Virus record (IMG/VR): IMGVR_UViG_3300046698_000515
Coordinates: 1-64,000 of that record
DNA from: a virus
DNA: 64,000 nt
Direction: 5' to 3' (one strand)
In this document: in pieces, positions 27,070 through 27,252 of the stretch
How the letters are laid out: every line of letters begins with the position of its first letter
Numbering within the stretch: the first letter of the stretch is position 1
Made by a program: the position numbers and the translations under genes
Notes under the pieces: model-generated
Databases searched by the model: none
Told to the model about the DNA's origin: nothing
The model's input: only the letters and a program-made list of their open reading frames with translations

Positions 27070-27198
27070 ATGAAAACGTCGGTTATATTAGGTAGAACAG
27101 AGCTCGATAAGGGGATATGCCCCAAATCAGCCGCTTCTCCCTCTATTGAACGTTTGCATCAAGATTTTAGTTATAATCAGTGGAGGTATGCAGGGTAA
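27070..27198 (+). CDS. putative attenuator leader peptide (42 aa)
   Basis: MKTSVILGRTELDKGICPKSAASPSIERLHQDFSYNQWRYAG; all 20 amino acids, 35 distinct codons; 3' end complementary to the terminator stem. Confidence 0.65.
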   Translation: MKTSVILGRTELDKGICPKSAASPSIERLHQDFSYNQWRYAG

Positions 27199-27216
27199 GT
27201 AATTTTTAGACTTTTT

Positions 27217-27252
27217 AAAACCCTGCTGAAGAAAAAGTCAGCAGGGTTTTTT
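27217..27252 (+). terminator. intrinsic terminator (attenuator)
   Basis: AAAACCCTGCTGA-AGAAAAAG-TCAGCAGGGTTTTTT. Confidence 0.85.

Follow-up and report, generated by a model that had tools for sequence, protein, structure and literature searches.

Here, we describe a putative translation-sensing attenuator ahead of a tRNA island in a contig of an uncultured phage (IMG/VR record IMGVR_UViG_3300046698_000515). The window analyzed comprises the first 64 kb (64,000 nucleotides [nt]) of this 73.5-kb contig (32.5% G+C), and its genes include those for a baseplate hub protein and a ribonucleotide reductase interrupted by an intein and by a gene for an endonuclease (Pfam/PHROG matches). The element in question is a leader open reading frame (ORF) of 42 sense codons (27070 to 27198; ATG at 27070, second codon AAA, TAA at 27196 to 27198), which lies between a promoter-like site and an intrinsic terminator. 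Contigs from four DNA runs showed zero differing letters over positions 26800 to 28100, and a search for RNA runs containing the region returned none.

All features of the locus lie on the plus strand. The promoter-like site (27020 to 27048) was identified by sequence match and consists of TTGCAA (27020 to 27025), a 17-nt spacer, and TAAATT (27043 to 27048), with TG at 27040 to 27041 forming an extended −10; the leader ATG follows about 15 to 20 nt 3′ of it. An earlier note on this DNA, made from the letters alone, had reported a sigma-70-like promoter here; the site is present with its extended −10, but it is weaker than claimed, with 8/12 hexamer matches, which is below the threshold of 9/12 used in our promoter scan. 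Further upstream, an ATAAATA motif (27002 to 27008) may represent a late-type promoter, and similar motifs are visible 7 to 20 nt upstream of many long ORFs in the genome. The first 31 codons of the leader (27070 to 27162, 93 nt) form a long, imperfect predicted hairpin (−25.1 kcal/mol; z = −2.6; matched by 0.8% of 500 shuffles), which might restrict re-initiation or serve to pause transcription or translation. At the end of the ORF lies a predicted antiterminator hairpin (27190 to 27226; −10.3 kcal/mol), in which GCAGGGUAAGU (27190 to 27200), made up of the final two sense codons, the stop codon, and the 2 nt after it, is paired to ACUU and ACCCUGC. The terminator follows (27217 to 27252; 13-bp stem with 6 GC pairs at 27217 to 27250, 8-nt loop, T-run at 27247 to 27252; −20.0 kcal/mol), as strong and as placed ahead of the tRNA island as the earlier note had held.

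Downstream of the terminator are an ORF for an HNH endonuclease (27256 to 27729; 157 amino acids), which lies between the switch and the first tRNA, then tRNA-Gly (27961 to 28034; anticodon ACC; tRNA calling), tRNA-Tyr (28294 to 28386; GTA; called by ARAGORN at a relaxed threshold only), a phage transfer-messenger RNA (tmRNA) gene (28803 to 29209; Rfam RF00023, 84.2 bits, and an ARAGORN tmRNA call), and tRNA-Trp (29405 to 29491; CCA), the last RNA gene ahead of a weak terminator-like hairpin at 29627 to 29659. At relaxed settings, the island holds approximately 17 to 20 tRNA genes and extends to approximately 39.7 kb, with protein genes on both strands interspersed.

The terminator and the antiterminator compete for the same RNA. 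ACCCUGC is part of the 5′ arm of the terminator, and the pairings claimed in the earlier note were all found in place (GCAGGGT at 27190 to 27196 with ACCCTGC at 27220 to 27226; AAGT at 27197 to 27200 with ACTT at 27210 to 27213). For nascent RNA with its 3′ end at 27226, 27232, or 27238, the predicted structure of minimum energy includes the antiterminator. The duplex of the 5′ arm with upstream RNA has an energy of −14.0 kcal/mol, and one as strong between the 5′ arm and the 40 to 100 nt upstream was obtained in 0.5 to 0.8% of shuffles (P = 0.005 to 0.008) and in 0.8% of random genome 60-mers. The stop codon of the leader lies inside the 5′ strand of the antiterminator, 18 nt ahead of the terminator stem. 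A short ORF behind a promoter-like site, an intrinsic terminator, and an antiterminator that a ribosome could mask together reproduce the trp/his-type attenuator geometry that had been proposed, with the stop codon within the masked strand. A search of Rfam 15 with positions 26950 to 27300 gave 13 matches at E ≤ 10, all far below gathering cutoffs (best, 20.3 bits against a cutoff of 63), and neither a T-box nor any other Rfam family came near its cutoff in this interval.

The leader peptide (MKTSVILGRTELDKGICPKSAASPSIERLHQDFSYNQWRYAG) contains 20/20 amino acids and is encoded by 35 distinct codons among its 42, as the earlier note had counted, and each codon group that it listed (AAA/AAG, GAA/GAG, CAA/CAG, ATA/ATT, and ACA/ACG, plus AGA/AGG/CGT, TTA/TTG/CTC, and TCA/TCG/TCT/AGT) was found in the codon list. 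The commonest residue is serine (5/42), so that the enrichment for a sensed amino acid that characterizes trp/his-type leaders is lacking, and the peptide has no Pfam or PHROG match. Against 42-codon gene windows, a comparison proposed in that note, the leader is an outlier: 35 or more distinct codons occurred in 0 of 14,118 windows from 61 long ORFs (mean, 24.1; standard deviation, 2.6; maximum, 33), and all 20 amino acids occurred in only 26 of them. Random sequence of the ORF's own composition was taken as the fair null, because the leader is richer in G+C (0.42, versus 0.33 in the genome) and lacks gene-like codon bias (G+C at third codon positions, 0.38, versus 0.17 in genes), and this null gave P = 0.015 for at least 35 codons, P = 0.016 for 20 amino acids, and P = 0.0013 jointly. 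Given the 151 ORFs of similar length and the earlier reader's free choice of oddity, the diversity is suggestive, short of decisive.

With the peptide held fixed, 35 distinct codons had a P value of 0.015 under the biased usage of the genome and of 0.33 under uniform synonymous choice. The "pan-tRNA" design that had been proposed at the codon level is therefore not demonstrated, and maximal codon diversity has no support beyond what uniform synonymous choice gives; what is notable is the set of amino acids. The leader has a codon for 13/15 island tRNAs, a coverage matched by only 0.75% of 1,194 gene windows; this is explained by the amino acids it contains (with the peptide held constant, P = 0.13). 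Island tRNAs read 16/42 of its codons, compared with a mean of 15.3 in the same 1,194 windows, and 26/42 need host tRNAs as far as the partial contig shows; the idea of the leader as a codon mirror of the island tRNAs was rejected, since its share of such codons equals that of genes. No Shine-Dalgarno sequence was found at the leader or in 39 long ORFs of the genome, and this test is uninformative because the long ORFs have none.

Comparable leaders were sought in a census of ATG-initiated ORFs of 20 to 70 codons ending at most 70 nt ahead of a strict terminator. The sources were loci flanking ribonucleotide reductase relatives, the window's contig, three cultured-phage regions, and three IMG/VR contig samples, selected by patterns of tandem tRNA T-arms; near-identical peptides were collapsed, which left 334 rows. 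ORFs were classed as tRNA-proximal if a same-strand tRNA lay within 1.5 kb downstream. An antiterminator was called where an upstream complement to the 5′ arm reached P ≤ 0.05 against 200 shuffles. Diversity P values were simulated on each ORF's own composition, and the threshold (P ≤ 0.02) was chosen after the first sample had been seen.

Antiterminators were six times more frequent before tRNAs, an excess replicated in 3/3 samples: tRNA-proximal ORFs versus others scored 16/35 versus 10/138 in the first sample, 10/23 versus 6/65 in the second, and 9/22 versus 2/51 in the third (pooled, 35/80 versus 18/254; Fisher P = 6 × 10⁻¹³). For high diversity, the corresponding counts were 7/35 versus 1/138, 1/23 versus 0/65, and 0/22 versus 0/51 (pooled, 8/80 versus 1/254; binomial P against 2%, 2 × 10⁻⁴). 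When the window and locus L168, both of which had suggested the test, were left out, 6/77 remained (P = 0.0045).

Twelve leaders from the first two samples formed a high-diversity set (P ≤ 0.05), and 8/12 of them had an antiterminator, compared with 34/249 of the other ORFs in these samples. The recurrent unit is a promoter-like site, an ORF of 28 to 51 codons with 18 to 20 amino acids, a terminator, an antiterminator overlapping the ORF end, and same-strand tRNAs; examples come from phage contigs without similarity to the window (L168, L215, L271, L277, L198, L200, L199, L053, L306, and L369). The distance from stop codon to terminator is 18 to 34 nt in 11/12 high-diversity leaders; the 18 nt of the window is the lowest value, and of the 11 others, 10 have 21 to 34 nt and one has 62 nt, where the terminator was mis-called. 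The antiterminator strand falls within −35 to +11 nt of the stop codon, and the 13-bp antiterminators of L277 and L200 include the last codons together with the stop codon. The second residue is T in 7 of the 12 and K in 4, among them the window leader. None of 15 leaders examined with ARAGORN at a relaxed threshold contained a tRNA-like fold. The window leader fits this class in its length, its 20 amino acids (P = 0.016), and its 18-nt gap; it departs from it in having no tRNA directly behind the terminator. In 10/12 leaders, the first tRNA begins 35 to 243 nt after the terminator; the distances of 684 nt (L168) and 711 nt (window) occur only where an HNH gene is present.

Eleven further loci (L203, L214, L225, L246, L248, L269, L279, L317, L340, L354, and L360) carry ORFs of 21 to 38 codons, often with MKT, MTT, MRT, or MQT starts, and have a significant antiterminator before a terminator and tRNAs with ordinary amino-acid diversity. 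The broader class of candidate attenuators is larger than its twenty-amino-acid subtype. High-diversity leaders form a minority subtype, probably bound to lineages, of this wider class of leader/terminator switches ahead of phage tRNA arrays, for which replication was good. In the tRNA region of phage T5, no unit of the leader/terminator kind was found among 14 annotated small ORFs; their diversity is ordinary (P = 0.12 to 0.99), and within the 70 nt inspected after each, most run into tRNA genes or the next ORF and no terminator was seen.

The earlier note had set the absence of equivalents in relatives beforehand as a refutation of its reading; equivalents occur both in the unrelated contigs above and in cultured KVP40-type vibriophages. 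A leader stands at the head of the tRNA cluster in Vibrio phage QD01, and this region matches 50 Vibrio phage records. In an alignment of QD01 with seven of the matching phages (KVP40, nt-1, ValKK3, V05, F86, D482, and 1.081.O), an open frame of 37 to 38 codons with 18 to 19 amino acids is kept in 8/8, as are a purine-rich site ahead of the ATG and a UAG stop that abuts GUCC, which pairs with GGAC of the terminator arm. Within the ORF, 69/111 columns vary, mostly nonsynonymously, and after the stop only 24/62 columns do, a pattern that fits an RNA switch under constraint and a peptide of no importance in sequence. The plus-strand 37-codon leader ORF is annotated in phage F86 only. Minus-strand "hypothetical protein" genes have been annotated over the leader region (L296, 299 to 463, KVP40.0315; L301, 264 to 518) and are probably spurious.

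The analysis establishes the ORF, the terminator and antiterminator that compete at its end, how these are arranged, and that the arrangement recurs ahead of tRNA arrays in unrelated phages; leader translation, a coupling of stalling to read-through, and the extent of control over the island are inferred. We judge it reasonably likely, though well short of assured, that the leader is a ribosome-mediated attenuator through which slow decoding lets transcription proceed into an inserted HNH gene and the first tRNAs, possibly as far as the tmRNA. Transcription would start about 15 nt ahead of the 42-codon ORF. A ribosome reaching the stop codon would cover GCAGGGUAAGU and leave the 5′ arm of the terminator free, upon which the 13-bp terminator would form and transcription would end at about 27252. 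Were a ribosome delayed anywhere in the ORF, or none loaded, GCAGGGUAAGU would pair with ACUU and ACCCUGC and block the terminator, and read-through would reach the HNH gene, tRNA-Gly, and tRNA-Tyr, perhaps extending to the tmRNA and tRNA-Trp. Since translation of the leader requires all 20 amino acids, a delay in decoding any of them could trigger read-through. On this model, the phage probably makes more of its tRNAs and tmRNA when ribosomes falter. The attenuator interpretation of the earlier note is supported in this form by the competing structures and by the recurrent unit in unrelated phages. We regard a wider version as doubtful, though worth stating: the leader would act as a continuous test of the host's whole decoding capacity, such that starvation, tRNA cut by anticodon nucleases, or stalling would switch on the phage tRNAs and a tmRNA that rescues stalled ribosomes, with a homing endonuclease inserted in the slot, and the arrangement would be a general form of viral tRNA-gene control.

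Several findings weigh against the attenuator. The leader has no sequence relative, at the DNA or the peptide level, in the collections searched: none was found by blastn, tblastn, or nhmmer in sets of 81 and, subsequently, 161 loci that flank reductase relatives, a degenerate DNA pattern built at the peptide level had 0 matches in viral contigs and 0 in metagenome contigs, tblastn against 50,697 phage records returned only 2 records at E values of at least 5, a word-indexed protein search gave no candidate for the peptide, and blastn of positions 26800 to 27800 against phages gave no match. (The only blastn matches, L024 and L108 [84% over 38 nt], were rejected as an ordinary terminator behind a normal gene.) The closest reductase relatives are at most 67% identical, and therefore no close relative of the phage is at hand; the 58-amino-acid protein encoded upstream of the leader matched a single weak locus, and comparison of the window with reductase relative L053 around the leader and tRNA-Gly showed no homology. 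The enrichment for complete amino-acid sets comes mostly from the first sample, with 1/45 in the later two, and the best later matches for diversity (L369 and L464) are homologues of first-sample leaders (L215 and L199). The codon usage of the window leader looks noncoding, ranking by log-likelihood in the bottom 2.6% of 428 gene windows, with a score reached by 20% of 168 spurious out-of-frame ORFs, and so is as compatible with a chance ORF as with design. The predicted 5′ hairpin takes up the AUG in its pairing. No stable helix sequestering GCAGGGU (an anti-antiterminator) was found in the predicted folds, the full-length fold showing only weak pairing of 27162 to 27208, and an untranslated transcript would therefore read through by default. 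In the KVP40 group, third codon positions vary no more than first positions (24/35 versus 25/35), so that translation of these leaders is argued by the preserved open frame only.

The position of the first tRNA also counts against control of the island as a whole, since it lies 711 nt from the terminator with the HNH gene intervening. The earlier note had placed the attenuator at the head of the tRNA island; it does stand upstream of the island tRNAs, but the gene directly behind it encodes the endonuclease. As a caveat of the same note anticipated, promoter-like sites that may limit control of the island occur inside the HNH gene and at 28049 to 28076, the latter upstream of the tmRNA, which is possibly under its own promoter. 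Such hexamers are common in AT-rich DNA (83 found versus 63 expected). Given these sites further down, control by the switch could with any confidence extend no further than the first unit of the island. In L053 (19625 to 19700), a TTGACA-type promoter-like site lies right behind the terminator of the leader, and the tRNA that follows may be served by its own promoter as well as by read-through.

The rival that survives best, which we nevertheless consider unlikely, is a stand-alone small transcription unit (a small RNA or small-protein gene with its own promoter and an ordinary terminator) that adjoins the island by chance; the diversity of the ORF would then reflect a composition that is RNA-like and unbiased, and the upstream match to the terminator arm would be due to chance or would serve RNA stability. 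The raised G+C content and the resemblance of its codon usage to that of spurious ORFs fit such a unit, as do the z score of the 5′ hairpin, the overlap of the remaining top-diversity short ORFs of the genome with tRNA genes, and the annotation in the T5 tRNA region of stable RNAs of unknown function. The failure of the completeness signal to replicate in the two later samples and the promoter-like sites after the terminators of the window and L053 point the same way. It leaves unexplained, however, the sixfold antiterminator excess before tRNA arrays in all three samples, the near-constant gap of 18 to 34 nt between stop codon and terminator, and the near-complete amino-acid sets in unrelated sequences, and neither an Rfam family nor a tRNA-like fold was found to mark an RNA of this sort.

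A second rival, to which we give a small chance, is that the switch mainly controls the HNH homing endonuclease, the nuclease being silent unless antitermination occurs and tRNA control being incidental. The gene is identified by a PF01844 match (E = 5.6 × 10⁻⁴; 20.4 bits, just below the cutoff of 21.4) and by 13 matched PHROG families, 8 of which are named HNH endonuclease. Its ATG lies 6 nt past the terminator stem, so that a formed hairpin would presumably also crowd the start site. Its closest relative, at L162 (2872 to 3339; L162 and L168 are one contig; 75% identical across the HNH domain), also lies within a tRNA island at the same relative position and behind an analogous leader and terminator: upstream are TTGACA, 17 nt, and TAAGAT (behind TG), followed by an ORF of 33 codons that contains 20/20 amino acids (P = 0.001) and a hairpin that starts at the last codons and stop codon of the ORF and competes with the terminator. 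Homing endonuclease genes are found in the tRNA clusters of T4 (SegB; PMC2330249) and of T5 (hegA, hegC, and hegD, by annotation). Against this rival, the 10/12 high-diversity leaders followed by tRNAs at 35 to 243 nt have no HNH gene, for which reason the sequence suggests that the window's HNH gene was inserted into a pre-existing leader-tRNA spacer, and the regions flanking the two HNH genes could not be aligned with each other. The leaders of the window and L162 likewise gave no convincing homology. Homologous HNH genes thus occupy one place, from leader/terminator switch to next tRNA, in two phages that otherwise cannot be aligned, and they may mark a homing site in that spacer.

An RNA switch independent of translation, set by a protein, a small RNA, or uncharged tRNA and with the ORF as a chance frame, seems similarly improbable to us. 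The paired AUG, the lack of a Shine-Dalgarno sequence (though the long ORFs of the genome also lack one), and the uninformative codon usage agree with it. Against it, no T-box or other Rfam family came near its cutoff, unrelated loci repeatedly show a frame of 28 to 51 codons that ends at the switch (second residue T or K in 11/12), and the frame is open in 8/8 diverged KVP40-type leaders. A trans-acting leader protein is disfavored by peptides that are unrelated between phages and by the mostly nonsynonymous changes in the KVP40 group.

Other features of the island and the contig were recorded. ARAGORN (relaxed) reads the tmRNA (28803 to 29209) as permuted, with the tag ANKISQARALATLAVDRAFARVPAMA, and in relatives L042 and L054 a tmRNA lies directly 3′ of the reductase gene. 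Between the HNH gene, tRNA-Gly, and tRNA-Tyr are G+C-rich stretches without a long ORF (27754 to 27960 and 28120 to 28290), in which no Rfam family reached its cutoff and which may be undescribed structured RNAs or processing spacers. Unusual tRNAs in the island (27961 to 39707) include the Gly tRNA that has ACC as its anticodon, two whose anticodon loops are apparently 8 nt long (ccca, 32944 to 33018; gaaa, near 35924 to 36011), several of 87 to 92 nt (Trp, two Thr, Met, and Ile), and three detected by Rfam only (37740 to 37810, 38251 to 38322, and 38337 to 38410). The reductase is encoded in two pieces (21169 to 24954), the first with an intein-like C-terminal part, and between them lies an endonuclease-like ORF of 397 amino acids (DUF559 and MTES_1575 matches). 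G+C content is 0.42 to 0.45 over positions 1 to 6000 and 0.27 to 0.36 over most of the remainder, but 0.41 at 28 to 30 kb (the tmRNA region); the first 6,000 nt may differ in origin or contain genes under other constraints.

The reasons that phages have tRNA genes, and the control of these genes, are debated, and ideas include compensation for codon usage and replacement of tRNAs destroyed by defenses. If the attenuator reading is true, some phages make tRNAs on demand by means of a translation-sensing switch, and leader-peptide attenuation extends from amino-acid and synthetase genes to tRNA genes themselves. If the continuous test of decoding is also true, the class would be a general, previously undescribed viral control of tRNA genes. 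The design is present in cultured KVP40-type vibriophages and is thus directly testable. The window adds a tmRNA gene downstream of the switch and a homing endonuclease gene between switch and tRNAs, in the same place in two unrelated phages. A full-text literature search returned no account of leader-peptide attenuation of tRNA genes, the nearest systems being the whiB7 upstream ORF (uORF) and the Anabaena trn operon.

The leader-peptide attenuators of enterobacteria (trpL, hisL, and pheL, and the multivalent thrL and ilvL) combine a short ORF, a terminator, and an antiterminator masked by the ribosome. The window leader resembles the trp/his type in its promoter-proximal short ORF, its intrinsic terminator, and a mutually exclusive antiterminator that a ribosome would mask. 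It differs in having all 20 amino acids in place of a codon run for one or a few, in the absence of a stable anti-antiterminator (1:2) helix from its predicted folds, and in preceding phage genes for an HNH endonuclease, for tRNAs, and perhaps for a tmRNA, where the enterobacterial leaders precede biosynthetic enzymes. In the whiB7 (wblC) uORF of mycobacteria, according to one account, stalling leads to antitermination, and the system is activated by starvation for many amino acids and by knockdown of tRNA and tRNA-synthetase genes (PMC10274678). The broad sensing of translation stress proposed for the window leader is alike; unlike that leader, the whiB7 uORF is enriched in alanine, bacterial, and in control of a transcription factor, and the two have no sequence relationship, the window leader having a complete amino-acid set and preceding RNA genes of the translation apparatus in a phage. 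The Anabaena trn operon, a long tRNA array, is described as induced by translational stress through promoter repeats (PMC8421152), and in the texts of this and a second account (PMC10272220) the words leader, attenuat-, and terminator are absent. The array is accessory and remains off as long as translation is unimpaired, which is the same logic as that proposed here for the window.

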